The position numbers and the translations under genes were made by a program. Shown one piece after another: positions 1 to 39,101 of a stretch of DNA of 64,000 nucleotides (its first letter is position 1; each line of letters opens with the position of its first letter). The notes under the pieces were generated by a model. That model made no database searches and was not told the origin of the DNA. It worked only from the letters and a program-made list of their open reading frames with translations. The stretch covers positions 240,248 through 304,247 of the forward strand of contig CAYSVK010000003.1 of the NCBI GenBank assembly GCA_964434455.1. The letters are read 5' to 3'. The DNA comes from an uncultured Ferrimicrobium sp. (GTDB lineage Bacteria; Actinomycetota; Acidimicrobiia; Acidimicrobiales; RAAP-2).

Positions 1-2
1 TC

Positions 3-1265
3 GGCAAGAACCTCGTGGACATCATTCTCACGAACAACGGCTACGAGGTGATCAATCTCGGAATCAAAGTCGGCGTCAATGAGATGCTGGCCGCAGTCGA
101 TCAGCACCACGCTGACGCGCTCGGCATGAGCGGACTGCTCGTGAAGTCGACCCTCATCATGCGCGAGAACCTCGAAGTGATGAACGACCTCGGCTACGCC
201 AAGGTTCCAGTACTGCTCGGCGGGGCTGCCCTGACGCGCACGTACGTCGAGCGCGATCTGCGCGAGACCTACCGCGGCCGCGTCTTTTACGGCAAGGACG
301 CCTTCGAGGGACTGCGAGTGCTCGATCGGTTGAACGAACTCAATCGCACCGGCGAAAACGATCCGCTCTTCGGTCGAGAGATCTCCGAACGGCGCGTACC
401 GCGACGCAGCCGTGACGGCGCCCAGCCGGCACCTGACGGTCTGCCCTCGCGCAGCCCGTCGATCATTGCTGACAATCCACTCTTTACTCCGCCGTTCATT
501 GGCACTCGCGTGGCCAAGGGCGTCTCGCTCGACGACATCTCTGAATACCTCAACTTGACGGCGCTCTTTCGCAATCAGTGGGGGTACCGGCCCGAGAACG
601 GCGAAGACGACAAGGCGTTCAAAGAACGCGTCAGCGCGGTGCTGCGCGACCAGCTGGCGACTGCCAAGCGTGAAGGACTGCTCAATCCTCAGGTCGTGTG
701 GGGTCACTTTCCTGTCGCGTCCGAGGGCACCGAGCTCATTGTCTATAGCGACGAGTCGCGCACCACAGAAGCGGCGCGGTTCAACTTCCCCCGCCAGCAT
801 CAAGAGCCCTACTACTGCATCAGTGATTTCTTTCGGCCTCGCGAGTCAACCGACCACGACCACGCGAGTTTCATGCTCGTGACGATGGGCGCCGCGGTGT
901 CCGCGCGCTGCCAGGAGCTGTTCGCGGCGGATCGCTACACCGACTACTTGATGCTGCACGGACTGGGCGTCGAAATGGCCGAGGCGCTCGCCGAGCTGTG
1001 GCACCGTCGCATCCGCGAGGAGCTCGGCTTCGCCCACGAAGACGGACCGACCCTCACGGGTCTGTTCCGCCAGCAGTACCGCGGCGGGCGCTACTCGTGG
1101 GGCTATCCCGCCTGCCCCGATCTCACCGATAACGCCAAGGTGGCTGATCTGCTCGGCGCTGGGCGAATCGGCGTGTCGGTCTCTGAGGGTTACCAGTTGC
1201 ACCCCGAACAAACCACCGACGCGATCATCTGTCATCACCCCCAGGCGAAATACTTCGTCGCATGA
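3..1265 (+). CDS. metH: B12-dependent methionine synthase, C-terminal part (cobalamin-binding and reactivation domains); 5'-truncated by window edge
   Basis: GKNLVDIILTNNGYEVINLG, MSGLLVKST, LLGGAAL and RYSWGYPACPDL motifs; frame open to window start. Confidence 0.95.
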   Translation, partial: GKNLVDIILTNNGYEVINLGIKVGVNEMLAAVDQHHADALGMSGLLVKSTLIMRENLEVMNDLGYAKVPVLLGGAALTRTYVERDLRETYRGRVFYGKDAFEGLRVLDRLNELNRTGENDPLFGREISERRVPRRSRDGAQPAPDGLPSRSPSIIADNPLFTPPFIGTRVAKGVSLDDISEYLNLTALFRNQWGYRPENGEDDKAFKERVSAVLRDQLATAKREGLLNPQVVWGHFPVASEGTELIVYSDESRTTEAARFNFPRQHQEPYYCISDFFRPRESTDHDHASFMLVTMGAAVSARCQELFAADRYTDYLMLHGLGVEMAEALAELWHRRIREELGFAHEDGPTLTGLFRQQYRGGRYSWGYPACPDLTDNAKVADLLGAGRIGVSVSEGYQLHPEQTTDAIICHHPQAKYFVA

Positions 1266-2224: not shown

Positions 2225-3846
2225 CGCCGGGCGCCAAGTGCAACCGGCACCGAGGCGGCCAGTGCGTCGCGAGCGTGATAGCTCGAGCGCGTGAGCGGAC
2301 TGGACTGCACGTGCAAGAGGCCGAGCGCGCGCCCGGCGGCGGCGAGCTCATCGAACTCTTCGGGGTGCCACCACCGCGCGACCGGCAGGTGCGAGGCGCT
2401 GGGTCGTAGATATTGACCAATTGTCACGATCGACACACCAACCGCGTGCAAGTCAGCCAAGGTCTCGATCACTTCGTCCGCACTCTCGCCGAGACCGACC
2501 ATCAGACCGGACTTCGTGGTGAGTCCCGCGGCGTGCGCGCGAGCGAGCACCGTGAGACTTCGCGGATAGGTCGCCGCGCTACGCACCGCGCGCTGCAGGC
2601 GCGCCACCGTTTCGATGTTGTGATTGAGCACGTCGGGCCGCACGTCAATTAGTACCTCGAGTGACTCGCGGTCCCCTCGTAGGTCACTAGTGAGAACCTC
2701 GACGTCAGTACCGGGCCGACGTTCACGAATGGCGCGGACCGTCTCGGCCATCGCTCCGGCGCCGCCGTCCGCCAGATCATCGCGAGCGACGCAAGTAATT
2801 ACGGCGTGGGCGAGATCCAAACGGGCCACCGCCTCGGCGACGCGAGCTGGTTCGGTGGGATCCAGCGGCAGCGGGTGACGCGTGTCGACCAGACAGAAGC
2901 CGCACGAGCGCGTGCAGCGCTCGCCGTTCACCATGAACGTCGCGGTCCCGGCCGACCAGCACTCAAAGATGTTGGGACAGCCCGCTTCTTCACACACCGT
3001 CACGAGACGAAGGTCTTCGGTCAACGTGCGCAACGACTGAAACTCGCTCGAATAGGTCGCGGGGATCCTCAACCATTCGGGCTTGCGCTCGCGCAGCTCG
3101 AGCGACTGATCAACATCAACGCCCGCGCGACGGAGTCGACGGATGCCCGCCCGCTCGGTTCCACCGCGAGCCGCGGAGCGGTCGACCGATTGAAAGGTGG
3201 CTTCGGCGCCCAAGTGTGCGGCAATGGCGGTCGCCAACAGGGGTTCGACATCGGTGGAACTGACATCGATTCCCAGTGAGTTCAGCGATCCGACGGGAAA
3301 GTCGGGGATCCCGCACGGCACGATCACGGAGAATCCCGCGAGATCCACGTCAACGTTGAGCGCAATGCCGTGCAGGGTGCGACGACGACCGCGCGCGTCG
3401 CGCTGAGTACGTACGCCGATCGCCGAGATCTTCACCGGAGCGCTGTCGAGATGGGCCCACACGCCGGGATAGCCCTCATGACGACCAACTCGACCGAGCC
3501 GGTGATCCTCATTCAGCCCCGAGACGACCTCAATCACTGCATCTTCCAGTTGATGCACGTGTGCCGGCCCGGCACCGGGCTCGTCGCTTACCGTGCGAAT
3601 CACCCACGCCACCACCTGACCGGGCGCGTGATAGGTCACGTCGCCGCCGCGATCGGCGGGTTCGACGTCCGCATCGAGTTGACTCGGATCCACGAGGAAG
3701 TTCGACATCTCGGTGCGCACGCCCATGGTGTAGGTCGCGGGGTGTTCCATGACGAGCACGTAGTCGTCGTCGGCATTAAGCAGCCCGTGCTGGAGATCGT
3801 TCGCCTCCGCGAAACGCACGCGGCCGAGTGTGCGCACCCGCAGCAT
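2221..3846 (-). CDS. lipB-lipA: Fused octanoyltransferase (LipB) - lipoyl synthase (LipA)
   Basis: N-half: EHPATYTMG, DRGGDVTYHAPGQ, KISAIG, IVPCGI; C-half: CEEAGCPNIFEC, CTRSCGFC, RSSYHA, all in one 541-aa frame. Confidence 0.93.
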   Translation of the reverse strand: MLRVRTLGRVRFAEANDLQHGLLNADDDYVLVMEHPATYTMGVRTEMSNFLVDPSQLDADVEPADRGGDVTYHAPGQVVAWVIRTVSDEPGAGPAHVHQLEDAVIEVVSGLNEDHRLGRVGRHEGYPGVWAHLDSAPVKISAIGVRTQRDARGRRRTLHGIALNVDVDLAGFSVIVPCGIPDFPVGSLNSLGIDVSSTDVEPLLATAIAAHLGAEATFQSVDRSAARGGTERAGIRRLRRAGVDVDQSLELRERKPEWLRIPATYSSEFQSLRTLTEDLRLVTVCEEAGCPNIFECWSAGTATFMVNGERCTRSCGFCLVDTRHPLPLDPTEPARVAEAVARLDLAHAVITCVARDDLADGGAGAMAETVRAIRERRPGTDVEVLTSDLRGDRESLEVLIDVRPDVLNHNIETVARLQRAVRSAATYPRSLTVLARAHAAGLTTKSGLMVGLGESADEVIETLADLHAVGVSIVTIGQYLRPSASHLPVARWWHPEEFDELAAAGRALGLLHVQSSPLTRSSYHARDALAASVPVALGARR

Positions 3847-5033
3847 CAGCGCTCCGCGTCGACGTCCAAAGCGCCGAGCAGTTCGCCGACGCGTTCGAGG
3901 TATTTCGCGGCGGCGTAGGAGTCACAGATCCGGTGATCGAAACTCAGGCCCAGCACAATCACGCGGCTAAGCTCGACGTGGCCGTCCGCGTTAACAACGG
4001 CCGCCCCGCGCGCCGCGCCAATGGACAGCGCCGCTACTTCAGGCTGAATAATGATCGGCTGGCTCAACAATGTGTGCGGTGACGGCGCACTTACGATCGT
4101 GAACGTTCCACCCATGAGATCGTCGGCCGTGAGTTGGCGCGTGTCCACACGTTCAGCCAAGTCCACGAGTCGACGAGCGAGGGCGCGCAACGTCAGCCCG
4201 GCGGCGGCGTGGATGACCGGGATCAACATGCCGTCGCGATCCGCGTGGCGGGCAAAGCCGAGATTGACCGTGCGGTGCTCCACGATCTCACTGCCCGCAA
4301 ACGTGGCGTTCAGGAACGGGTACTCCCCCAGCGCGCGCACGGCGGCAATCGCCACCACGGCCTCATCGGGGATCGTTGCGCCGTCGCGGGTCATCCGGCC
4401 CCCGCGCTCGAGTGCGTCGAGAAAGCTCGCACTCACTTCAACGGCCACGAACCCGTGGGGGGCGACCTGCGCGGACATCGAGAGGTGCTCGCCCATGCGG
4501 CGCTGGCCCCGCGTGAGTTCCACCGCGACGTCGTCGGTGGGTCCGTTCGCGACCGCCAACTCCGCATCGCGACGGGTAATTGAACCACCCGGACCGCTGC
4601 CACTGACCGACGACGGATCGACGCCGCCATCGTTCAAAATTCGACGCACTACGGGCGAGGCGACCACTCCGGTGGTGTCGGGGGCCGCGGGTGCTGCGCT
4701 CGGAGTGGGTGTGGGTTCGGCGCGCGGCGCAGGAGTGGTCGCAGCGGACGGAGCGGAACTCGCCACGGGTGCAGGTGTAGAGGTTGACGAAGACGCCGCG
4801 GCGTCATCAATGACCGCGAGGCGTGCGCCCACTTCAACGGTGTCGCCTTCTTGCGCCAGGATCGCCGTAATGACCCCCGCACTCGGCGAGGGCATCTCGG
4901 AGTCGACTTTGTCCGTCGAGATCTCCAGAATCGGCTCGTCGCGCTCGACACGGTCGCCGACCTGCTTCATCCAGCGAAGGATGATCCCTTCGGTGACCGA
5001 TTCGCCGAGTGACGGCAGAACAACGTCAGCCAA
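3846..5033 (-). CDS. Dihydrolipoamide acyltransferase (E2) with one lipoyl domain, a PSBD and a divergent catalytic domain
   Basis: STDKVDSE lipoyl-Lys motif; ASPVVRR...GSGPGGSITRRD PSBD; FDHRICD. Confidence 0.9.
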   Translation of the reverse strand: MADVVLPSLGESVTEGIILRWMKQVGDRVERDEPILEISTDKVDSEMPSPSAGVITAILAQEGDTVEVGARLAVIDDAAASSSTSTPAPVASSAPSAATTPAPRAEPTPTPSAAPAAPDTTGVVASPVVRRILNDGGVDPSSVSGSGPGGSITRRDAELAVANGPTDDVAVELTRGQRRMGEHLSMSAQVAPHGFVAVEVSASFLDALERGGRMTRDGATIPDEAVVAIAAVRALGEYPFLNATFAGSEIVEHRTVNLGFARHADRDGMLIPVIHAAAGLTLRALARRLVDLAERVDTRQLTADDLMGGTFTIVSAPSPHTLLSQPIIIQPEVAALSIGAARGAAVVNADGHVELSRVIVLGLSFDHRICDSYAAAKYLERVGELLGALDVDAER

Positions 5034-6444
5034 CGTGCAGTCCTCGCCCCGCCAGGGCGATCAAGGTCTCACCGAACGTCTCTGACAGTGACGGGTGCGG
5101 CTGAATTAACGCGGCCGCCTCTTCCGCGGTCGCCTCCCAGTTGACGGCGAAGTACCCAGCGCCGAGCTGCTCGGTGACCCACGGCCCGGCCATGTGCACG
5201 CCCAAGAGCTGACCGGCCGTGCCGTCGGTGCGCTTTTCGGCGATCACCTTCACCACTCCATCGGTCTCGCCGATGATGCGAGCCCGGCTGTTGCCGCCGA
5301 AGGGATCCTTCTTTACGACGACGTCGTAGCCGCGCTCTTTGGCCGTGGCTTCAGTCAATCCACAAAATGCCACTTCGGGGCTGGAGTAAATGGCCCAGGG
5401 CACGCGGTCGTAGTCGACCGGCAGCGCCGTTTCGCCGAGGATGGTCTTGATCACGATGATCGCTTCGGCGAACGCCACGTGCGCCAACTGGGGCGTGCCG
5501 GCCACGACGTCGCCTACGGCGAACACCGTCGGGTTGCTCGTGCGCATCAGTCCATCGGCGACGACGAATCCCCGATCGTTCACCGTCACTCCGGTGCCGT
5601 CGGCGAGCAGCCCCTCAGTGCGAGGACGTCGGCCCACCGAGACGACTACCAGATCGGTCTCCACATCGTCGTGTCCTTCGACGTGCACGACGGTGCCGCC
5701 CTTTTTCTTCGGCGAGTGGCCGGTCACCTTGGCGTCCACGACGAACTGGACGCCGCGCTTTTTGAGGGCGCGCTGGACTACGGCGGTGACGTCGCTGTCA
5801 CAGCCCGTCAGAATCTGCGGCAACCCTTCGAGCACGGTGACCGAGGTCCCGAGGTCCACGAGCACTGAGGCGAACTCGAGGCCAATGGCGCCCCCGCCGA
5901 TTACGACGGCGCGGCTCGGCAGCGCGCTGAGGTTCAAGAACTCGTCGCTCGTGACCACCGTTGATCCGTCGACCTCAAATCCGGGAATGGTGCGCGGAAC
6001 CGAGCCCGCCGCGAGCACCACGTAACGACCACGCAGCACCGTGCCGGCGTCGGCGCCGTCGCTCACCGTGACGGTGCCGTCGGCTTCGAGGCGCCCCGAG
6101 CCGGAGAGCACAGTGACCTTGCGGCCCTTCAGCAATCCGGACAGTCCCTTAAAGAGTTGGTCGACGACCTCGTTCTTGCGGCGCTGGCTGACCGCGAAAT
6201 CAACCTTGGCCGATCCGGCGGCGAATCCGAACTCGCCGCTGTGCTCGATCGTGCGCGCGACGTGGGCGGTCTCGAGGAACTCCTTCGCCGGCACGCAGCC
6301 TCGGTGCAGGCAGGTTCCACCAACCTTGTCGCGCTCCACGAGCGCGATATTGAGACCACCGGAGGCGCCGTAGAGGGCGGCGGCGTACCCGCCGGGTCCG
6401 CCCCCGATGATCACCACGTCAAACGGCTGAGTCTCGGAGGCCAC
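5026..6444 (-). CDS. lpdA: Dihydrolipoamide dehydrogenase (E3)
   Basis: GGGPGGY FAD motif, GGTCLHRGCVP disulfide, GGGAIGLE, HPSLSE. Confidence 0.95.
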   Translation of the reverse strand: MASETQPFDVVIIGGGPGGYAAALYGASGGLNIALVERDKVGGTCLHRGCVPAKEFLETAHVARTIEHSGEFGFAAGSAKVDFAVSQRRKNEVVDQLFKGLSGLLKGRKVTVLSGSGRLEADGTVTVSDGADAGTVLRGRYVVLAAGSVPRTIPGFEVDGSTVVTSDEFLNLSALPSRAVVIGGGAIGLEFASVLVDLGTSVTVLEGLPQILTGCDSDVTAVVQRALKKRGVQFVVDAKVTGHSPKKKGGTVVHVEGHDDVETDLVVVSVGRRPRTEGLLADGTGVTVNDRGFVVADGLMRTSNPTVFAVGDVVAGTPQLAHVAFAEAIIVIKTILGETALPVDYDRVPWAIYSSPEVAFCGLTEATAKERGYDVVVKKDPFGGNSRARIIGETDGVVKVIAEKRTDGTAGQLLGVHMAGPWVTEQLGAGYFAVNWEATAEEAAALIQPHPSLSETFGETLIALAGRGLHVG

Positions 6445-26662: not shown

Positions 26663-27178
26663 TCAGTTCCAGACGTCCTCGGAGTACGGACGACGTCGGG
26701 CGGGGGCGAAGTCGCGTTTCCAGACCATGACCTTGCGGCGGAAGTAGCAGACCTCGAGTCCGTCCTGATTGAACCCTTTGGTTTCGACCGTCACGATGCC
26801 GCGATCATTCTTGGAGCTCGACGCCACTCGATCGAGCACGTGAGTCTCGGCGTAGATGGTGTCGCCGTGAAAGGTCGGATTCTTGTGGACCAGGGATTCA
26901 ATCTCAAGGTTCGCAATCGCCGCCCCGCTCACGTCGGGCACGCTCATGCCGAGGATGAGTGAGTACACGAGGTTCCCCACCACCACGTTACGACCCTGCA
27001 CCGTTTCGTGCTCGGCGAACCACGCGTTGGTATGCAGCGGGTGATGATTCATCGTGATCATGCAGAACAGGTGGTCGTCGGCCTCGGTGATGGTCTTACC
27101 CGGCCAGTGGCGGTAGATGTCGCCGGGTTCGAACTCTTCGAAGTAGCGCCCGAACGGGCGGTCGTACGTCGTCACCAC
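26663..27178 (-). CDS. MaoC-family (hot-dog) dehydratase, probable mesaconyl-CoA hydratase
   Basis: FGRYFEEF, HWPGKTITEADDHLF, MNHHPLH, LGMSVPDVSG, PTFHGDT; resembles the MaoC of Streptomyces ethylmalonyl-CoA clusters (from memory). Confidence 0.8.
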   Translation of the reverse strand: MVTTYDRPFGRYFEEFEPGDIYRHWPGKTITEADDHLFCMITMNHHPLHTNAWFAEHETVQGRNVVVGNLVYSLILGMSVPDVSGAAIANLEIESLVHKNPTFHGDTIYAETHVLDRVASSSKNDRGIVTVETKGFNQDGLEVCYFRRKVMVWKRDFAPARRRPYSEDVWN

Positions 27179-27182
27179 ACTC

Positions 27183-27611
27183 CTAGCTTTCGATTTCGCG
27201 CGCCGGTCGAGTGGAGAACGCCACCGTCGCACCCGGCAAGGTGTCGCCGTCGATGAACAGTCGCCACTGGAACCTCGACGACGGTGCCAGTTCGAGCGGC
27301 GGAATGCCGAGGGCGATCGGAAAGTCCACGGGCGCTCCGTCGGGCACACCATTTGGTTGTCCCACGGAAAATTCGCCGCGGATCTCGATCGGTTGAAGCT
27401 CTTGACCGACGCGCACCGGTTGACCGTCGGCGTCTTCGAGCACCAACTCCCAGTGATGAACGCGCTCGACTTCGTGACGATCGACGTTGAGCTTGATCAC
27501 GATTGAGGACGGAGAAGGATCCGGTCCCGTGACCGACCAACCGCCCCCGAGGATGTAGAGCTTGCCGTCAGCGATTTGGGCACTGTCAGCGAGCATCATC
27601 AGAACCTGCAC
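27183..27611 (-). CDS. Conserved hypothetical protein (DUF6941-like)
   Basis: MMLADSAQIADGKLYILGGGW; TAGGCT -10 box 6 nt before GTG. Confidence 0.7.
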   Translation of the reverse strand: MQVLMMLADSAQIADGKLYILGGGWSVTGPDPSPSSIVIKLNVDRHEVERVHHWELVLEDADGQPVRVGQELQPIEIRGEFSVGQPNGVPDGAPVDFPIALGIPPLELAPSSRFQWRLFIDGDTLPGATVAFSTRPAREIES

Positions 27612-27667
27612 GCAGCGAGCCTACGAGTCCGTATGGGTTCGAGAAGTTCCTGTGTAACTTGAGTCGC

Positions 27668-29248
27668 GTGACGACCGTCTCACGCGAAACCGACGTCGCG
27701 ACGTCGCTCGTGGCTCACGCGCAGTCCCTCATTTCGAGCGCGGCGCGCCGCCTCGGTGAGCTCGGCGGCCCCGAGATCCACCAGGTCTTGGCCTACGACC
27801 TCGCCCACCTCGCGAGCGCCGTCGCAACCGCGCAGTCCGCCCTGAAGTACGCCGAGCTCGGCGAAGAAGAGCGCGCGCTGGCCAGCGCCTTCATCGCCAT
27901 CGCCCTGGGTGACCTCGGCAGTCGCGTGGTAGGACGCGAGGAGCTCTTTGGCTGGGACGCCAACTTTTTTGATCCGTTTCGCGACTTCGTCAATCGGTAC
28001 CGCAGCCCTGAATTCCTCGCCTCGGTAGCCGAACGTCCCGGCGATCGCCACCTCGATGACTCCTTTGGCATGGTGGCGGAGACCTTTCACCGATTCGCTC
28101 TCGAGAAAGTTCGCCCGTACGCCGAGCACGTGCACCGCGACAATGACGATGTTCCCGAGTCAGTCATCCAGGGTCTCGCCGAACTCGGAGGGTTTGGACT
28201 CTCGGTGCCCGAGGAATTCGGAGGATTCGCTTCGGGCGACGAGTCTGACTACCTCGGCATGGTGGTGGCGACCGAAGAGCTGTCCTGGGGCGCGCTCGGT
28301 ATTGGCGGGTCGCTCATTACCCGACCGGAGATTCTCACGCGCGCTCTCATCGATGGAGGGACTGACGAGCAAAAGGCCACGTGGCTGCCCCAACTGGCCA
28401 GCGGCGAGAAACTCGCGGCGGTCGCGGTCACCGAACCCGACTTCGGCAGCGACGTTGCCTCAATCACAACGACCGCAATCGCCCACGGCGATGCGTTTCT
28501 GATCAACGGCACCAAGACGTGGTGCACATTTGCGGCCCGTGCGGACGTATTGATGTTGCTCGCGCGGACCAACCCTGACCGATCAGTTGGTCGGCGAGGA
28601 CTCTCACTGTTCTTGGTTGAAAAACCGATCGGTGACGGGCACGGGTTCTTGTTCAACCAACCAGACGGAGGTCGACTCGAAGGTCGACCGATCGACACTC
28701 TGGGGTATCGCGGGATGCACTCCTACGAAGTGAGTTTCACCGATTGGATCGTGCCCGCCACCGCGCTCGTCGGCGGCGAAGCGGGATTGGGCCGCGGGTT
28801 CTACCTACAGATGGCTGGATTTGAAAACGGTCGGATCCAGACCGCCGCGCGAGCGATTGGCGTGATGCAGGCGGCGTACGACGCGGCTCTCGAGTACGCG
28901 CGCAGCCGCATGATCTTTGGCCGCCCGTTGCTCGACTACGAGCTCACCCGCGTGAAACTCGGCACCATGGCCGCGATCATCCAGTGCGCCCGCCAGTTCT
29001 CCTATGACGTGGCGCGACTGATGGCCCGCGGTGAAGGCTCGTTGGAGGCGTCGATGGCCAAGGCGTACGTCTGTCGAGCCGCCGAGTGGGTGACCCGCGA
29101 AGCGATGCAGATTCACGGCGGCATGGGCTACGCCGAGGAGTTCCCGGTCAGTCGCTACTTCGTCGACGCCCGGGTGTTATCCATCTTCGAAGGCGCCGAT
29201 GAAACGTTGTGCCTCAAAGTCATTGCGCGGCGGCTCATTGGTGAGTGA
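27668..29248 (+). CDS. Acyl-CoA dehydrogenase with N-terminal extension, probable (2S)-methylsuccinyl-CoA dehydrogenase
   Basis: About 530 aa; VAVTEPDFGSD, GSLITRPEIL, LGYRGMHSYE, FENGRIQTAARA, IFEGADE; start 27668 (TAACTT -10 box) or 27659. Confidence 0.8.
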   Translation: MTTVSRETDVATSLVAHAQSLISSAARRLGELGGPEIHQVLAYDLAHLASAVATAQSALKYAELGEEERALASAFIAIALGDLGSRVVGREELFGWDANFFDPFRDFVNRYRSPEFLASVAERPGDRHLDDSFGMVAETFHRFALEKVRPYAEHVHRDNDDVPESVIQGLAELGGFGLSVPEEFGGFASGDESDYLGMVVATEELSWGALGIGGSLITRPEILTRALIDGGTDEQKATWLPQLASGEKLAAVAVTEPDFGSDVASITTTAIAHGDAFLINGTKTWCTFAARADVLMLLARTNPDRSVGRRGLSLFLVEKPIGDGHGFLFNQPDGGRLEGRPIDTLGYRGMHSYEVSFTDWIVPATALVGGEAGLGRGFYLQMAGFENGRIQTAARAIGVMQAAYDAALEYARSRMIFGRPLLDYELTRVKLGTMAAIIQCARQFSYDVARLMARGEGSLEASMAKAYVCRAAEWVTREAMQIHGGMGYAEEFPVSRYFVDARVLSIFEGADETLCLKVIARRLIGE

Positions 29249-29513
29249 CGACAACTTCGATCTCGGCGACACTTCGATGAAATTCGTTGCGACGCGCGAT
29301 CAGGTGACGATTTACAACGAAGACGGAGCGATTGTGTCGTCGTATCAGCCAGACGCCGGTGCCCGCGTCTTGGTTCCGTGTCTCGGCGGACCTTCGACCA
29401 GTCGGCTAGCGACCTATCCGCCGCCGCTCGAAATCGATGTCGATGGCGGCACGTACGTCTTGGTGGACGACGGTCCGTTCTATGACTGGCGCTACGAGTT
29501 CGTACCGCGCTAG
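29241..29513 (+). CDS. Small hypothetical protein
   Basis: GTG overlapping the upstream stop; ends in a CTAG overlap with the NiCoT gene. Confidence 0.55.
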   Translation: MSDDNFDLGDTSMKFVATRDQVTIYNEDGAIVSSYQPDAGARVLVPCLGGPSTSRLATYPPPLEIDVDGGTYVLVDDGPFYDWRYEFVPR

Positions 29514-30721
29514 CTCGCCGCGGCCTCGTCGTGATCAATGGTGAAGGGCGCGTGCACCGCGCCCAGGGTGATGCCCGCAGAGTGCAAATCCAGAATGTCA
29601 CCGCGCGCGTGCTGGGCGGCCAGTGCGGCTCGCTCCCAGCGCTCTTCGACCTTGCCGAACTTCCACACTGAGAGCGCAATCGCCCAGACCGCCACGAAGA
29701 TGCCGACGATGATGAAGCCGGCGGAGTTGATGTTGAAATTGCGGGCGTAGCCGAACAGTCCGCCGCGCAAATGAAGTTGGGTCGTCACGACTTGGAGTAA
29801 CTCGAGCGTGCCGATGAACAGTGCGACGAAGACAGACAGACCCGTGATCGTGATGTTGTAAAAGACCTTGCGCAACGGCTTGGAGAACGCCCAGCCGTAC
29901 GCGAAGTTCATAAAGCTGCCATCGATCGTGTCCAACAAGCTCATGCCCGCGGCAAAGAGAATCGGCAGACTGAGCAGCGCCCAAAACGGCAGTCCGTTGG
30001 CCACGGCCGAGCCCGCGAGAACCAAGAACGCGACCTCGGTAAAGGTGTCAAAGCCGAGACCGAACAGCACGCCGACGGGATACAGCTTCCACGGAGCGTC
30101 AATGGAGCGGGTGAGGCGTCCAAAGAATCGCATCATGAATCCGCGGGCGTCTAAGTGCTTTTCGAGTTCGGAGTCGTCGTAGCGGCCCTGGCGCATCTCG
30201 AGAAAGACCTTCACAATCCCGATCAAGACGATGAGATTGAGAATGGCAATGACGTAAAGAAAGCTGCCCGACACAATGGTGCCGACGAGGTTGCCTACGC
30301 GGTGCAGCGGAGAGTTGGCGTTGCGGACCTGTCCGCCGAGGGCGCGCGCTCCGAGGCCCAGCAGGATCGTCATGACGAAGACGATTGAGGAATGTCCGAG
30401 CGAGAAGAAGAATCCGACCGACATCGGACGCTTGCCCTCCGACATGAACTTTCGCGTTGTGTTGTCGATTGCGGCGATGTGGTCGGCGTCAAAGGCGTGA
30501 CGCATGCCGAGTGTGTACGCGAGGACGCCCGTGCCCACGCCCAACGTGCTGACTTTGCCGATCATGTAGTGGCGACTGGCGGCGTAAAAGAGAATGCCAA
30601 AGCCCACGACGTGCAACAGCGCGATGAATCCGAACATCAAGTTCAAACGACGCCATTCGTCGCGCGAAAAACTGGCGCGCACGCGGGCCGCGACGGACGG
30701 ACGCTCAATGACGGTGGTCAC
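29510..30721 (-). CDS. HoxN/HupN/NixA (NiCoT) nickel/cobalt permease
   Basis: Signature RHAFDADHI, FSLGHSSIV, LGFDT; about 8 TM; TAAGGT -10 box 6 nt before GTG. Confidence 0.92.
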   Translation of the reverse strand: MTTVIERPSVAARVRASFSRDEWRRLNLMFGFIALLHVVGFGILFYAASRHYMIGKVSTLGVGTGVLAYTLGMRHAFDADHIAAIDNTTRKFMSEGKRPMSVGFFFSLGHSSIVFVMTILLGLGARALGGQVRNANSPLHRVGNLVGTIVSGSFLYVIAILNLIVLIGIVKVFLEMRQGRYDDSELEKHLDARGFMMRFFGRLTRSIDAPWKLYPVGVLFGLGFDTFTEVAFLVLAGSAVANGLPFWALLSLPILFAAGMSLLDTIDGSFMNFAYGWAFSKPLRKVFYNITITGLSVFVALFIGTLELLQVVTTQLHLRGGLFGYARNFNINSAGFIIVGIFVAVWAIALSVWKFGKVEERWERAALAAQHARGDILDLHSAGITLGAVHAPFTIDHDEAAAS

Positions 30722-30765
30722 GGGGTGACCTTAATAGGAGGTTGTTGCATTAGGCCGGGTACCCC

Positions 30766-31638
30766 CTACTGCACTCCTTCAATGGCCGCCTGCACCAAAA
30801 GGACGCGACGCGCCTCTTCGACGTGCAGATTTTCGATCATGCGCCCGTCAACAGTGACGACGCCGCGGCCGTCAGCGCGAGCTTCATCAAACACCGCAAT
30901 CACGCGGCGCGAGTACTCCACTTCGTCCACGCTCGGCGCGAACGCCGCGTTGCAAGGCTCAACCTGACTCGGGTGAATCAGTGTCTTGCCGTCAAATCCG
31001 AAAGCTCGTCCCTGCTCGCACTCTCGTTGGAATCCATCGGCATCGGAGATGTCGTTAAAGACGCCGTCGAGAATCGACTTGTCAGTGGCTCGGGCGGCTA
31101 GTACGCACCACGACAGTGAGGCGAGCAGCGGTGAACGATTGGCAACTCGCTGAGCATGTAGCTCTTTGATGAGGTCGTTGGTTCCCATCACCAGCGTGAC
31201 GAGCCGTTCGCTCGCCGCGCAGATCTCGTGGGCCGACAACACGGCGATGGGCGTTTCGAGCATCGCCCAGATCCGGGTGTGATCGGGTGCGCCAAAGCGC
31301 TCCAGCGCCGACTCCACCGCTCGCACGTCGTCAACCGAATTGATCTTGGGGACGACGACGGCATCGGGGCCAGCAGCGGAAATCGCTTTGAGGTCATCGT
31401 CGTGCCAAGCGGTTCCGATTCCGTTGGCCCGAATCGTTACCTCCTTGCCAGCGAACGTGTGAACAGCCGCGCAGGCCTGTTCGCGCGCGAGATCCTTCAT
31501 GTCGGGACTCACGGCGTCTTCCAGATCCAAAATCAAGGCATCAGCGGGTAGACCCTGCGCTTTTTCCAACGCCCGCGCGTTCGCGGCAGGCATATAGAGA
31601 ACCGACCGTCGCGGGCGAAACCCGCTGGAATGACTCAC
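30766..31638 (-). CDS. CitE-superfamily enzyme, Mcl2-like (3S)-malyl-CoA thioesterase
   Basis: RRSVLYMP, ALEKA, LDLEDAV, AMLETP, MGTNDL, GFDGKTLIHPSQ. Confidence 0.82.
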   Translation of the reverse strand: MSHSSGFRPRRSVLYMPAANARALEKAQGLPADALILDLEDAVSPDMKDLAREQACAAVHTFAGKEVTIRANGIGTAWHDDDLKAISAAGPDAVVVPKINSVDDVRAVESALERFGAPDHTRIWAMLETPIAVLSAHEICAASERLVTLVMGTNDLIKELHAQRVANRSPLLASLSWCVLAARATDKSILDGVFNDISDADGFQRECEQGRAFGFDGKTLIHPSQVEPCNAAFAPSVDEVEYSRRVIAVFDEARADGRGVVTVDGRMIENLHVEEARRVLLVQAAIEGVQ

Positions 31639-31640
31639 AA

Positions 31641-32693
31641 CTACGCCTCGGCGTACAACGCGGCGAGCTGCGGATCACGCTCGGCGAGCTCGTCAGCGAG
31701 CGCGAGCATCACTCGACACTGCTTGACCGACGCGTCATCTTCCATCTTGCCGTTGAGCATCACCGCTCCGGTGCCGTCACCCATGGCCGCGACGACTTGG
31801 CGCGCGTGAACGACGTCCTCACGTGACGGCGAAAATACCCGACGCGCAATCTCAATTTGACTGGGATGCAAGCTCCACGCGCCGACGCAGCCGAGCAGAA
31901 ACGCGTTGCGAAACTGGTCCTCACACGCGACGTGATCGGCGATATCGCCGAACGGTCCGTAGTAGGCGTAAATGCCGTTGGCCCGGCATGCGTCCACCAT
32001 TCGCGCAATCGTGTAGTGCCACAGGTCCTGTTGAAAGATCGCGCGCGGCGCATCAATCGCACCATCGACCGGATCTTCGCGCACCAGGTATCCGGGGTGT
32101 CCTCCGCCGACGCGCGTGGTTTTCATGCGTCGATTGGCGGCCAGGTCCGCGGGACCGAGGGAGAGTCCCTGCATGCGCGGAGACGCGGCGCAGATCTCCT
32201 CGACATTGGCGACACCGCGCGCCGTCTCCAAGATGGCGTGGACCAAAATCGGTCGACTAAGCCGGCTCTTTGCTTCCAGCTGAGCTAGCAGCCGATCCAC
32301 AAAGTGAATGTCCTCGGGCCCCTCAACTTTCGGAATCATGATCACGTCGAGGCGGTCGCCCACCTCAGTCACCGCGGTAACGAGATCGTCCAGACCCCAC
32401 GGTGAGTCAAGCGCGTTGACCCGCGTCCAGAACTGGGTGCGACCGAAGTCGTTTGACCGACCGACCTTTACGAGCCCGGCGCGAGCCGCTTCTTTGTCGG
32501 CCGCGGGAACACCGTCTTCAAGGTTGGCCAACAGCACGTCGACCTGGGGCACCAGCTCGGGCACCTTGTCGGCCATTTTCTGGTTGGAGGCCGGAAAGAA
32601 GTGGATCATTCGCGACGGGCGGAACGGAATCTCCATGAGCGGTGACGGGGCTCCGACCGCAAGGGGTCGAAAGAAGTCTTTGGGTGAACGCAC
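31641..32693 (-). CDS. mcl: Malyl-CoA/beta-methylmalyl-CoA lyase (Chloroflexus-type)
   Basis: [59 protein letters not shown] closely match the Chloroflexus MMC lyase as I recall it; GGGAGG RBS. Confidence 0.85.
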
Positions 32694-37383: not shown

Positions 37384-37415
37384 TGATCAGAAAATCGCGG
37401 CTGAGCCGCGACGAC

Positions 37416-38054
37416 TCAAGCTCCGACGAGCTCGTTGCGCTCCGTGAGGAACTCCCACCACGCGTCAGCGACAACCTTGGCTGCCTCCAGCACGACACCG
37501 TCGTTGGCGCCCAACTCCGCGAGCCCGTTCAGCGTCCATGAGGCGTGCGTCGCCTCGATTCCCCCGTGGACGTCCCAGAACTTCGTGGCCGACTCGGTCG
37601 CACCGTAAAACTCGCGGAGACCTTCGGACTTGGTGGTCGCAATCTCGGCACCCTGCATCTCGTACGCGAGTAGTCCAGCCATCGCCGACTCTGGTCCGCG
37701 ACTTAGGACGTCGCGGTAGGCGTCAACGAGTCGCGCCATCGCCGGCGAGATCGACGCGCGCTGCGCCTCGTAGTGCGACGCGAACTCCTCAAACAGTTCG
37801 AGGTGCGAGGGTGCGCCAACCTCATCGGCCAGGTTGTCGCGCACGGCGTTGCGAGCAGTGCCCTCCGGCAACCGCTCAGCGAGCTCAGCGAGGAAACTCG
37901 GCAAGCACGTCTCGAAGTACCGGTACTGCTCGGCGTACGCGCTGAGCTCGCCGTCTACGAGCGAACCGCTCTCCCACCGTCGATAAAAGGGGTGGTCCAA
38001 GAGGTGACGCCCGTCAAGGGCGGTGTTCATCAACTGCTCGAGGTGTTCGGTCAT
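37416..38054 (-). CDS. CADD/PqqC-like heme-oxygenase-like dimetal oxidase
   Basis: HLLDHPFYRRW, AYAEQY, NLADE...H, AYE, HxxxExxH; TACCGT -10 box 6 nt before ATG. Confidence 0.82.
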   Translation of the reverse strand: MTEHLEQLMNTALDGRHLLDHPFYRRWESGSLVDGELSAYAEQYRYFETCLPSFLAELAERLPEGTARNAVRDNLADEVGAPSHLELFEEFASHYEAQRASISPAMARLVDAYRDVLSRGPESAMAGLLAYEMQGAEIATTKSEGLREFYGATESATKFWDVHGGIEATHASWTLNGLAELGANDGVVLEAAKVVADAWWEFLTERNELVGA

Positions 38055-38132
38055 GCCACGACGGTAATAGATCGGGGGTGGTCAAGGTCGGGAACCCGAA
38101 TAGGTTGGCGCTTCGACCTATGGGGAGGTTCG

Positions 38133-39101
38133 ATGAGGGCGATTGTGGTGCGAGGGACCGGTCCGAGTGCCCGCTTGGAGTTAGCCGACGTGGCCTCGCC
38201 CGCACTTGGCGCGGGTCAAGTTCGCGTGGCCGTGCGCGCCTGTGGCGTGAACTTTCGTGACGTGCACTCCTATGAGGAGTCCGCCGGCGAAGGATCAGCC
38301 AGCATTCCCGGTACCGATTTCTCGGGCGTGGTCACTGAACTCGGTGAGGGCGTCAACGAGTTCGATCTCGGACAACGAGTTTTCGGCGCGGTCCTTGATT
38401 CGGCCTACGCCGACGAAGTCGTCACGGTGCCGACCTTGTTGTTCGCACTGCCGGACTCCATGAGTTTCGCCCAGGGCGCGGCGCTGCCGGTCAGCGGACT
38501 GTCCGCGTCGTACCTCGTAAGTGAGGCCGCACTTTCACCCGGAGAAGTTGGTGTGAGTTACGCCGCCGCTGGGGGGCTCGGCTGCTTCGTGGGCGCGTTG
38601 TGGCACCGTCGCGGCGTTCAGTCGATTGGTCTCGTCTCAACATCGGCCAAGGCCGACGTTGCTCTTGCGATGGGACACAGCGACGTCGTGAACTACAAGA
38701 CCACCGATCCGGTTGAAGAGGTTCGCCGCCTGAGCGGCGGCGGGGCCCACGCCGTCATTGACTCGGTTGGAGGGCCACAGTTCGCCAACAGCTTCAAAAT
38801 GCTGCGCAACGGAGGAACGGTGATTCTGTGCGGGACCTCGGCGGGCGAACCCGACATCGTGCGGGCCGCGGGCGAATTTCTCGGATCGCGGCGCAATCTC
38901 GCGCTGCGCGAGTTTTATCTCGTGACGCACATCTTTGATCACTTCAACGAGGTCGCCGGCCGAGTGTCCGAACTACTCGAACTGTTCACCGTGCACGGAT
39001 TTGACCCGCCCATCGCCGAATTTGAGATGGCCGATTTCCAAAGAGCGCTCGACCTACTGGGCGAGGGTTCGACCGTGGGCAAATTGGTCATCACAACGTG
39101 A
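38133..39101 (+). CDS. Zn-independent quinone oxidoreductase (MDR superfamily)
   Basis: GVNFRD, PGTDFSGVV, AAAGGLG, VIDSVGG, GKLVI; GGGGAGG RBS. Confidence 0.85.
   Translation: MRAIVVRGTGPSARLELADVASPALGAGQVRVAVRACGVNFRDVHSYEESAGEGSASIPGTDFSGVVTELGEGVNEFDLGQRVFGAVLDSAYADEVVTVPTLLFALPDSMSFAQGAALPVSGLSASYLVSEAALSPGEVGVSYAAAGGLGCFVGALWHRRGVQSIGLVSTSAKADVALAMGHSDVVNYKTTDPVEEVRRLSGGGAHAVIDSVGGPQFANSFKMLRNGGTVILCGTSAGEPDIVRAAGEFLGSRRNLALREFYLVTHIFDHFNEVAGRVSELLELFTVHGFDPPIAEFEMADFQRALDLLGEGSTVGKLVITT

Follow-up and report, generated by a model that had tools for sequence, protein, structure and literature searches.

The window, that is, the whole 64-kb stretch of DNA analyzed here, from an uncultured Acidimicrobiales bacterium living on rock, carries a gene for a 212-aa protein with the fold of heme-oxygenase-like dimetal oxidases (HDOs), whose closest kin among validated enzymes are NePabS (NE1434) of Nitrosomonas europaea and CtCADD (CT610) of Chlamydia trachomatis, both self-sacrificing synthases of the folate precursor 4-aminobenzoate (pABA), built from a Tyr and a Lys of their own chain (PMC9522330, PMC11965152, PMC4161248). 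The protein is probably a pABA synthase of the same CADD/PabS type, sacrificing itself in a single turnover and probably capable of using Fe/Fe; as every residue that those two enzymes need is kept, it probably does the same job. Judged from its sequence, it appears to be a mis-annotated relative of an already known kind of enzyme, distant from the validated members.

The gene and its catalytic residues

The ORF, which runs from ATG to TGA (Table 1), is a real gene; GC3 is 0.80 in its frame and higher than in the two remaining frames (0.68 and 0.46), full-length homologues of 210–212 aa were found, and Pfam PF14518 matches the translation with 56 bits. Domain fusions were considered and rejected: longer homologues (263–369 aa) contain no second Pfam domain, and their extensions are probably over-called starts. 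A terminator-like hairpin 4 nt past the stop codon suggests a monocistronic gene, it being the position alone that is suggestive, as a single terminator-like site is about the shuffle expectation. On the other side, a gene for a zinc-type alcohol dehydrogenase/quinone oxidoreductase (38133–39101, plus strand) diverges from the studied gene, and no sigma-70 consensus promoter was found in the 78-bp region between them. A downstream 325-aa ORF was considered as a partner and dropped, because only the two closest relatives have it and it has no Pfam match. Evidence of transcription was not found for the gene, the sequence of which occurs only in DNA runs from rock metagenomes.

Residues were paired with those of CtCADD in a phmmer alignment to PDB chain 1rcw, which has native CT610 numbering, and the positions were verified in Python. 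The tyrosine pairs, with the query residue given first, are Y24=Y27, Y40=Y43 and Y44=Y47; the metal-ligand pairs are E78=E81, H84=H88, E132=E142, H163=H174, E167=D178 and H170=H181; and the other pairs are K142=K152 and F159=Y170. All residues named in a preliminary description of this sequence align at the CADD positions given there, and, because the alignment to 1rcw yields the same pairs, the CADD numbering used there is right; one more pair, Y131=Y141, had been absent from that description.

The set of three His and three carboxylate ligands of the dimetal site is complete, with one conservative change, Asp to Glu (E167). The counterpart of the sacrificial Tyr, Tyr24, lies in an HPFY motif, and the donor Lys is present as K142, ten residues after the bridging Glu E132, at the spacing of CADD K152 and NePabS K159. 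The redox-active aromatic network linking metal site and Tyr is represented by Y40, Y44 and Y131, and F159 occupies the Y170 position, like F177 of NePabS. The role of the sacrificial Tyr has been described for both CADD and NePabS (PMC9522330, PMC11965152), as has that of the amino-donor Lys, Lys152 in CADD and Lys159 in NePabS (PMC11965152).

Table 1. Positions in the window of the putative pABA synthase gene, its key codons and the flanking elements.
Feature	Position	Strand	Evidence or remark
CADD/PabS-like putative self-sacrificing 4-aminobenzoate synthase gene, 212-aa HDO	37416..38054	-	ORF, GC3, Pfam, TIGR04305, PDB matches, AF2
Tyr24 codon TAT (= sacrificial CADD Tyr27, NePabS Tyr25)	37983..37985	-	alignment, codon position, 120/120 homologues
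Lys142 codon AAG (= amino-donor CADD Lys152, NePabS Lys159)	37629..37631	-	alignment, 120/120 homologues
Tyr40 and Tyr44 codons (CADD Y43, Y47), tyrosines adjoining the sacrificial Tyr	37923..37937	-	alignment, conservation
Glu78 and His84 codons, metal ligands (CADD E81, H88)	37803..37823	-	alignment, conservation
Tyr131 (CADD Y141, NePabS F148) and ligand Glu132 (CADD E142) codons	37659..37664	-	alignment, conservation
Phe159 (CADD Y170, NePabS F177), Trp160 and ligand His163/Glu167/His170 (CADD H174, D178, H181) codons	37545..37580	-	alignment
Terminator-like hairpin (stem of 8 bp, 6 of them G-C) followed by TTTTCT	37394..37412	-	4 nt past the stop codon
Divergent intergenic region, 78 bp	38055..38132	.	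gene prediction and Pfam matches (identical contig), sequence

Similarity in sequence and structure

In a single-sequence phmmer search of PDB, the E-values were 1.8e-20 for NePabS (9pj4) and 4.6e-18 for CADD, and a profile built from 68 homologues yielded 3.7e-34 and 2e-32, respectively, and also 1e-13 for BesC and 1.5e-4 for PqqC. The match to NePabS and CADD is far beyond chance, and the E-values place these two as the closest characterized relatives by approximately 20 orders of magnitude. The AlphaFold (AF2) model (pLDDT 97.2) is an all-helical, heme-oxygenase-like seven-helix bundle, best matched by the CtCADD structures 8va9, 8vag and 1rcw (TM 0.88–0.90, rmsd 1.6–1.9 Å), with TM 0.90 and rmsd 1.6 Å for 8va9. 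Foldseek E-values are about 1e-11 to 3e-11 for CADD and 2e-6 or worse for PqqC, BesC and TenA, those for TenA being 3e-5 or worse. The NCBIfam model of the CADD family, TIGR04305, did not accept the protein, its score of 117.3 bits falling below the curated cutoff of 200. The same holds for its relatives, with representatives of the subfamily scoring 106–130 bits and canonical representatives 183–281 bits.

Public annotation of the relatives points to PqqC (PQQ synthase) or a TenA thiaminase/regulator, as JGI calls them “pyrroloquinoline-quinone synthase” and NCBI calls one of them “TenA family transcriptional regulator”; the Pfam superfamily model PF03070 also matches the protein, with 36.5 bits. 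Such an identity is extremely improbable, and we excluded it on the scores, the structure matches and the dimetal site. The PqqC model TIGR02111 gives 12.6 bits vs a cutoff of 240, structural E-values are 2e-6 or worse vs 3e-11 for CADD, and no TenA chain occurs among the PDB sequence matches even at E ≤ 10. The complete 3-His/3-carboxylate dimetal site is present; neither pqqA, pqqB, pqqD nor pqqE is found nearby, and no pqq genes lie within 10 kb on either side. [quoted passage not shown] Closer clustering with TenA or PqqC had been named in advance as the outcome that would speak against a CADD-like oxidase, and the protein is clearly not closer to them.

Conservation and phylogeny of the subfamily

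In uncultured Acidimicrobiales the subfamily is large, and about 270 matches were counted among species-representative genomes. Within this one order the gene is widespread, mostly as a single copy, and the relatives come mostly from peat, soil and freshwater MAGs. Complete Acidimicrobiaceae chromosomes carrying it include OY970319.1, OY969907.1, OY970351.1 and OY969792.1.

No variation was seen at Y24, Y40, Y44, K142, Y131 and the six ligand positions among 120 homologues with 50–68% identity to the query, and the Tyr/Lys/ligand set is kept in 78 intact representatives of 50%-identity clusters, the canonical CADD clade included. The initial reading of the protein as a CADD-like dimetal oxidase in which sacrificial Tyr, donor Lys and Tyr network are all retained is supported. 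Tyr and Lys seem to serve a single function, because loss of the Tyr in three relatives goes together with loss of the Lys: P0177 and P0178 have F24/F40/F44 and either I or V at position 142, with all six ligands intact, and P0153 has L24, M142 and two changed ligand positions.

Two substitutions that had been singled out as possibly altering the chemistry recur among relatives. Phe at the Y170 position is no peculiarity, as the Y131/F159 combination is more frequent in the family than any other (34 of the 58 canonical and all 20 subfamily representatives) and NePabS has Phe as well, where it goes with a preference for Fe/Fe (PMC11965152). At the D178 position, Glu and Asp alternate inside the subfamily (11 E and 9 D among the 20 representatives), and the corresponding BesC column in the MAFFT alignment is also Glu. 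The position of CADD W91 is occupied by Trp in 57 of 58 canonical representatives and by Phe88 here, accompanied by a reciprocal Phe to Trp replacement at position 160; because of this swap, the electron-transfer route may differ from the canonical one. In the NJ tree the query belongs to a separate F88/W160-type group outside the clade holding CADD and NePabS, this canonical clade having 64% bootstrap and the deeper nodes being weak, and the mean identity between the subfamily and the canonical group is 32%. Since the subfamily falls outside the clade of validated enzymes, its function is not bracketed phylogenetically.

This placement, as well as the score below the TIGR04305 cutoff, agrees with an HDO that catalyzes the conversion of a free small molecule (such as an amino acid or aromatic compound), like BesC, UndA or AetD, and uses the Tyr and Lys residues for substrate binding or for protective hole-hopping. 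Most characterized HDOs do use free substrates (PMC13108848), F88/W160 and E167 are kept and are identical in BesC in the MAFFT alignment, and linkage to folate genes is absent both from the window and from 81 related loci. We still consider a free substrate unlikely. By profile E-value, NePabS and CADD are closer to the protein than BesC by approximately 20 orders of magnitude, the BesC-type model NF042919 gives 25.5 bits vs a cutoff of 500, and the full self-sacrifice residue set is invariant across the subfamily (120/120). In the MAFFT alignment BesC lacks Y24, Y40, Y44 and K142; the Tyr differences alone can be relied on, because phmmer pairs a BesC Lys with K142 and MAFFT does not. Moreover, the genomic contexts of the gene are housekeeping and variable, and no neighborhood resembling a biosynthetic cluster was seen.

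A metal-binding or protective role against oxidative stress, with the Tyr chain shunting oxidizing equivalents away, would suit the rock-surface habitat (the sequence comes from rock metagenomes) and has a precedent among HDOs in DtpC, a desiccation-tolerance protein of Acinetobacter with a protective role (PMC13232832). We regard it as quite improbable, as the protein showed no particular resemblance to DtpC and the closest relatives are pABA synthases, the relatives extend beyond dry habitats, and the invariant Lys beside the Tyr would be left unexplained.

Gene neighborhood, predicted chemistry and known systems

For 81 related loci, every ORF within 7 kb of the gene was clustered, and the commonest were annotated. 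No neighbor was shared by more than 19 of the 81 loci, and the neighborhood was dropped as functional evidence; the common neighbors (pentose-phosphate genes, a TPR protein, transporters) mirror subclade synteny only. No pab or fol genes were found in the window, which covers 64 kb of a 431-kb contig, and no folate-biosynthesis genes were linked to the gene there or in the 81 loci, where the sole folate-related neighbor is purU (formyl-THF deformylase), the adjacent convergent gene in six relatives. Six-frame translations of 1.47 Mb of related loci yielded nothing credible for motifs of chorismate-binding or folate enzymes. The organism uses folate, as shown by metH, inside which the window begins. 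Folate-gene linkage holds for Chlamydia and Wolbachia and not for NePabS, and is a supportive rather than a defining feature. The NePabS gene is likewise unlinked to folate genes (PMC11965152). A search of the literature on Acidimicrobiia and pABA or folate returned nothing relevant.

On the model of CtCADD and NePabS, we infer the following chemistry, product, metal preference and physiological role for a self-sacrificing pABA synthase. The dimetal center, held by the six ligands E78, H84, E132, H163, E167 and H170, would activate O2, and the oxidizing hole would travel via Y131, Y44, Y40 and possibly W160 to Tyr24, about 14 Å away. The released fragment would be oxygenated to the carboxylate and receive its amine from Lys142, and the resulting pABA would enter the synthesis of dihydropteroate and folate. 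With its Y131/F159 pair the protein equals the NePabS F148Y variant, which is about equally active with Fe/Fe and Mn/Fe; because of this equivalence, Fe/Fe or either metal pair is predicted, with no strict dependence on Mn/Fe.

A wider reading, which we put forward tentatively and hold to be somewhat doubtful, is that a whole abundant order of free-living Actinomycetota from soil, peat and rock has self-sacrificial pABA synthesis as its standard route, which would then no longer be peculiar to parasites and some proteobacteria. It would be performed by a sister subfamily keeping residues found in outgroup-like sequences (F88/W160, Glu ligand), the radical route to the sacrificial Tyr would differ from that in CADD and NePabS, and pabABC would have been dispensed with. 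The self-sacrificing pABA synthases studied so far are, to our knowledge, just two, and they belong to a single clade. If the prediction for the present protein holds, such chemistry would reach into Actinomycetota and into a sister subfamily that hundreds of uncultured Acidimicrobiales species possess. It would then be possible to correct many “PqqC” and “TenA regulator” names, the TIGR04305 cutoff would be missing a functional branch, and natural variants would be available for the metal choice and the hole-hopping path (Tyr141/Phe170, swapped Trp/Phe, Glu/Asp ligand). It would also bear on the scoring of folate autotrophy in MAG-based metabolic reconstructions, in which these organisms, if pabABC is absent, would be classed as pABA auxotrophs in error.

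Among known systems, NePabS (Fe/Fe) is the best sequence match, with 34% identity over the aligned core. Like the query, it has the sacrificial Tyr (Y25, here Y24), the donor Lys (K159, here K142), all six ligands and Phe at the position of CADD Y170 (F177, here F159), and its gene is in no folate cluster. It has Phe148 where the query has Tyr131, so that the query resembles its F148Y variant; its W/F at the 88/160 pair stands against F/W here, and Asp as the last carboxylate ligand against Glu, and a loop of about ten residues in NePabS is absent from the query, the two proteins belonging to different subfamilies. CtCADD (Mn/Fe; PDB 1rcw, 8va9) is the best structural match and shares Y27, Y43, Y47, Y141, K152 and all ligand positions, at 28% identity, but has Tyr170, W91/F171 and D178 in place of Phe159, F88/W160 and E167; its gene lies in a folate operon and its product moonlights in host apoptosis, whereas the host of the query gene is a free-living actinobacterium, in which the gene stands on its own. 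For BesC (4-chloro-allylglycine synthase, PDB 7twa) the single-sequence E-value is 3e-8; it has the same fold and 3-His/3-carboxylate site and, in the MAFFT alignment, F88, W160 and the Glu ligand in common with the query, but no equivalents of the sacrificial Tyr, Y40 and Y44, the Lys at the K142 position being alignment-dependent. PqqC and TenA/THI-4, the source of the current automatic annotations, share the seven-helix fold, but, unlike the query, are metal-free and have no dimetal site; the query scores far below the cutoffs of these families, and their structural matches are five orders of magnitude weaker than the CADD match.

Kinship to validated pABA synthases

The 212-residue protein, which the preliminary description took for a CADD-like dimetal oxidase, matches only broad Pfam models (PF14518, 56 bits; PF03070, 36.5 bits), and its best NCBIfam model is TIGR04305, "CADD family putative folate metabolism protein", matched end to end with 117.3 bits vs a cutoff of 200. 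The models of BesC, a heme-oxygenase-like dimetal oxidase (HDO) acting on a free substrate, and of PqqC score 25.5 bits (cutoff 500) and 12.6 bits (cutoff 240), respectively. The phmmer search of PDB sequences yields whole-length alignments with 9pj4, "4-aminobenzoate synthase" (E 1.8e-20), 1rcw (CT610, E 4.6e-18) and 8va9 (CtCADD, E 5.4e-18), followed by BesC (E 3e-8) and then marginal PqqC matches only. Entry 9pj4 is NePabS (NE1434), as with the 21-residue tag offset Tyr, Phe, Lys and Phe sit exactly at the published NePabS positions Y25, F148, K159 and F177 (PMC11965152). The profile of 68 homologues (mean column identity 54%) retains this order, with NePabS at E 3.7e-34, CADD at 2e-32, BesC at 1.1e-13 and PqqC at 1.5e-4.

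The AlphaFold2 model based on the same 68-homologue alignment is all-helical (mean pLDDT 97.2, pTM 0.92), and its best Foldseek match in PDB is CtCADD 8va9 (TM 0.90, rmsd 1.6 A, E 2.9e-11), followed by CtCADD entries 8vag and then 1rcw, while PqqC, BesC, TenA, FlcD and HrmI each have E 2e-6 or worse. Hence the initial family reading holds in sequence, profile and structure, and the closer clustering with TenA or PqqC, named there as grounds against it, is seen neither in the scores nor in Foldseek. A PqqC or TenA identity is excluded by scores, structure, metal site and context, and we give it practically no credence; the public names of relatives, "pyrroloquinoline-quinone synthase" and "TenA family transcriptional regulator", are very probably wrong.

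With positions indexed on both aligned sequences, the residue pairs proposed from the sequence, including the CADD numbering given there, prove right: ligands E78/E81, H84/H88, E132/E142, H163/H174, E167/D178 and H170/H181, Y24/Y27, Y40/Y43, Y44/Y47 and K142/K152, and F159 at the position of CADD Y170; one further match is Y131, corresponding to CADD Y141. In the validated enzymes, CADD Tyr27 or NePabS Tyr25 is cleaved to form the pABA ring, and the amine comes from CADD Lys152 or NePabS Lys159 (PMC9522330, PMC11965152, PMC13108848). The studied protein thus has the fold and the ligand set, strictly conserves the needed residues, and is nearest in kinship to these two enzymes. By analogy, it is probably a self-sacrificing pABA synthase of the CtCADD/NePabS type.

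An Acidimicrobiales subfamily and two sequence types

Word-indexed search identified 392 relatives, the best 120 of which are about 211 aa long and 50–68% identical to the protein, the named ones coming from Acidimicrobiales MAGs. Y24, Y40, Y44, Y131, K142, F159, W160, F88 and the six ligands are invariant in these 120 homologues, as are the neighboring H21, F23, Q43 and N74. In reference genomes taken one per species, a relative is encoded by 270 stretches; of the best 80, nearly all belong to MAGs of Acidimicrobiaceae or Acidimicrobiales obtained from peat, soil, freshwater or glacier-type samples. The closest of these relatives reaches 64% identity, which means that this set lacks the species of the window. 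Two gene copies, 63% identical (130/206) and both with the full residue set, are present on different contigs of the Acidimicrobiales MAG SMAG_U13935 (L034 1838–2455 and L047 10001–10606), and are either genuine paralogs or a sign of a mixed bin.

Three DNA runs from rock metagenomes, all of one study, contain the window sequence (94–100% of sampled words), and one freshwater-sediment run contains part of it; no RNA run with it was found in the sampled-word search. The rock habitat would suit a DtpC-like protective HDO, but no specific similarity is observed, and this role seems very improbable.

With HMMER, an exhaustive search through 1.84 billion cluster representatives yielded 798 matches at E ≤ 1e-3. 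Roughly full-length matches among the best 150 were aligned together with CADD, NePabS and BesC fragments, and 78 intact representatives keep Y24, W27, Y40, Y44, K142 and all ligands. Two types can be told apart among them. The canonical type (58 of 78), which includes relatives of CADD and NePabS, has W88/F160 in 57 cases (F88/W160 in P0169) and D167 in all 58, and five of its representatives score 183–281 bits with TIGR04305. In the type of the studied protein (20 of 78), F88/W160 is present in 19, position 167 is E in 11 and D in 9, and four representatives score 106–130 bits. The reciprocal aromatic swap at positions 88 (codon 37791–37793) and 160 (codon 37575–37577) may reflect mutual compensation along the electron-transfer path; position 51 is also type-specific, Leu vs canonical Phe. 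Sequences of different types share 32% identity on average, compared with 39% for those of the canonical clade and 47% for the 16-member core of the other type. In the neighbor-joining tree rooted on BesC, the other type falls outside the canonical clade (bootstrap of this clade 64%, deeper nodes weak). As BesC in the above alignment has F, W and E in columns 88, 160 and 167, as in our protein, and W160 also occurs in P0177 and P0178, F88/W160/E167 may be the older state and W88/F160/D167 derived in the canonical clade, if this weakly resolved tree is followed.

P0177 and P0178 (about 32% identity) retain all six ligands, with Phe at positions 24, 40 and 44, and Lys142 is replaced by Ile or Val (P0177 scores 71 bits with TIGR04305), and look like an uncharacterised HDO group having lost the whole self-sacrifice set; P0153 has Leu24, Met142 and two altered ligand positions (R84, A163). 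Joint loss of the Tyr triad and Lys in these three proteins argues that these residues are tied to one function. This loss, the invariance of the set across the subfamily, and the preference of 20 orders of magnitude for pABA synthases over BesC all speak against a catalytic HDO working on free substrate, an alternative we consider unlikely despite the residues in common with BesC, the TIGR04305 score below the cutoff and the position outside the clade of validated enzymes.

The enzyme class is already known, and putative homologues were noted in "diverse bacteria", among them Chloroflexi, Sphingomonas, Wolbachia and Rickettsia (PMC11965152). Our literature search brought up neither Actinomycetota nor Acidimicrobiales in this connection. 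The novelty, though modest, is real: an order-wide sister subfamily, missed by curated models and misnamed by automatic pipelines, its hallmarks being the exchange of Trp and Phe and a natural Tyr141/Phe170-type site.

Genomic setting

The reading frame is supported by GC3 of 0.80 vs 0.68 and 0.46 in two other frames (GC content across the window is 58–66%), and by end-to-end coverage by homologues of 210–212 aa. The overlapping plus-strand ORF 37538–37945 and the 5' extension of the plus-strand ORF 37773–39101 were rejected as shadows.

Features of the window and of related loci
Feature	Position	Strand	Remarks
metH, 3' part	1–1265	+	cut by window edge; B12-binding and activation domains; first residues GKNLVDIILT
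lipB-lipA-like ORF, 541 aa	2221–3846	-	LipB/LplA-type domain 24–208, radical-SAM domain 309–465
PDH E2	3846–5033		adjoins lipB-lipA-like ORF
PDH E3	5026–6444		
MaoC/mesaconyl-CoA-hydratase-like	26663–27352		
Acyl-CoA dehydrogenase	27659–29248		
NicO nickel/cobalt transporter	29510–30721		
Two adjacent HpcH/HpaI-type genes	30766–32693		malyl-CoA/citramalyl-CoA lyase-like
Predicted membrane protein, 527 aa	34854–36437	+	after lgt and NlpC/P60 gene; conserved in nearest relative; no Pfam match on record on identical contig
Ala/Arg-rich ORF, 325 aa	36406–37383	-	next gene downstream of the studied gene
Terminator-like hairpin	37394–37412		8-bp stem, 6 G-C pairs, TTTTCT tail
Studied gene	37416–38054	-	ATG to TGA, 212 codons
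Zinc-type alcohol dehydrogenase, 322 aa	38133–39101	+	call on identical public contig
Predicted membrane protein, 451 aa	40905–42260	-	394 aa on identical contig; no Pfam match on record there
purU, locus L015	10649–11497	-	
purU, locus L003	10730–11578	-	four other loci also

The gene looks like a stand-alone unit, given the divergent alcohol dehydrogenase gene (78-bp spacer), the 3' hairpin and the downstream ORF, which has no Pfam match and whose only counterparts (40% identity, same position) are in L004 and L005, the two closest relatives. The hairpin lies four bases past the stop codon; as chance gives about as many such sites in the region, it is suggestive through its position alone.

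The gene content of the window is of an ordinary housekeeping kind. The 541-aa ORF looks like a putative lipB-lipA fusion, with thiE in the same stretch; suf genes, cysteine desulfurase, prolyl oligopeptidase, leuCD, leuA, leuB with an adjacent Aminotran_4 gene (likely ilvE), greA, serA and aminotransferases are also present, and the 26663–32693 region may be a C4/C5-dicarboxylate CoA-ester module. The cobalamin-dependent methionine synthase gene metH shows that the organism uses folate, in the form of methyl-tetrahydrofolate, and B12. The 64-kb window contains no pab or folate-biosynthesis genes.

Settings of individual relatives differ (TetR regulators, Lon and transporters; purU; synteny with the window; dnaG-rpoD), and flanking-ORF clustering in 81 related loci revealed no neighbor in more than 19, the recurrent ones being pentose-phosphate genes, a TPR protein, transporters and purU. 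The latter, encoding formyltetrahydrofolate deformylase (ACT and Formyl_trans_N domains), is the only folate-related neighbor, convergent and immediately adjacent in 6 of 81 loci. Gene context provides no positive support for the pABA role; this weighs little against it, since NE1434 is not clustered either (PMC11965152).

Proposed reaction and metal preference

By analogy with CtCADD and NePabS (PMC9522330, PMC11965152, PMC13108848), O2 would react at the dimetal center held by E78, H84, E132, H163, E167 and H170, and the oxidizing equivalent would pass to Tyr24 via Y131 and the Y44/Y40 pair, perhaps with W160 too. Tyr24 would then lose its side chain by cleavage, leaving Gly, and the fragment would be oxygenated to the carboxylate and aminated at the cost of Lys142. 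The product would be pABA, one molecule per polypeptide in a single turnover, and the physiological role and metal preference are likewise predicted from these two enzymes.

Neither of the two substitutions flagged initially sets the protein apart. Phe at the position of CADD Y170 is no peculiarity, as Y131/F159 is the commonest combination in the family (34 of the 58 canonical representatives, all 20 of the other type), with the CADD pair YY in 19 and the NePabS pair FF in one of the 58. The Asp-to-Glu change, initially proposed as one that could alter cofactor chemistry, is conservative variation at the last carboxylate ligand and no marker of new chemistry, since E and D alternate within the subfamily and Glu matches the BesC residue in this column.

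NePabS, with F148/F177, has a preference for Fe/Fe; the F177Y substitution shifts it to Mn/Fe, and F148Y works about equally with Fe/Fe or Mn/Fe (PMC11965152). With its Y131/F159 pair, the studied protein corresponds to a naturally occurring NePabS F148Y, and we therefore predict that the activity is Fe/Fe-competent or cambialistic.
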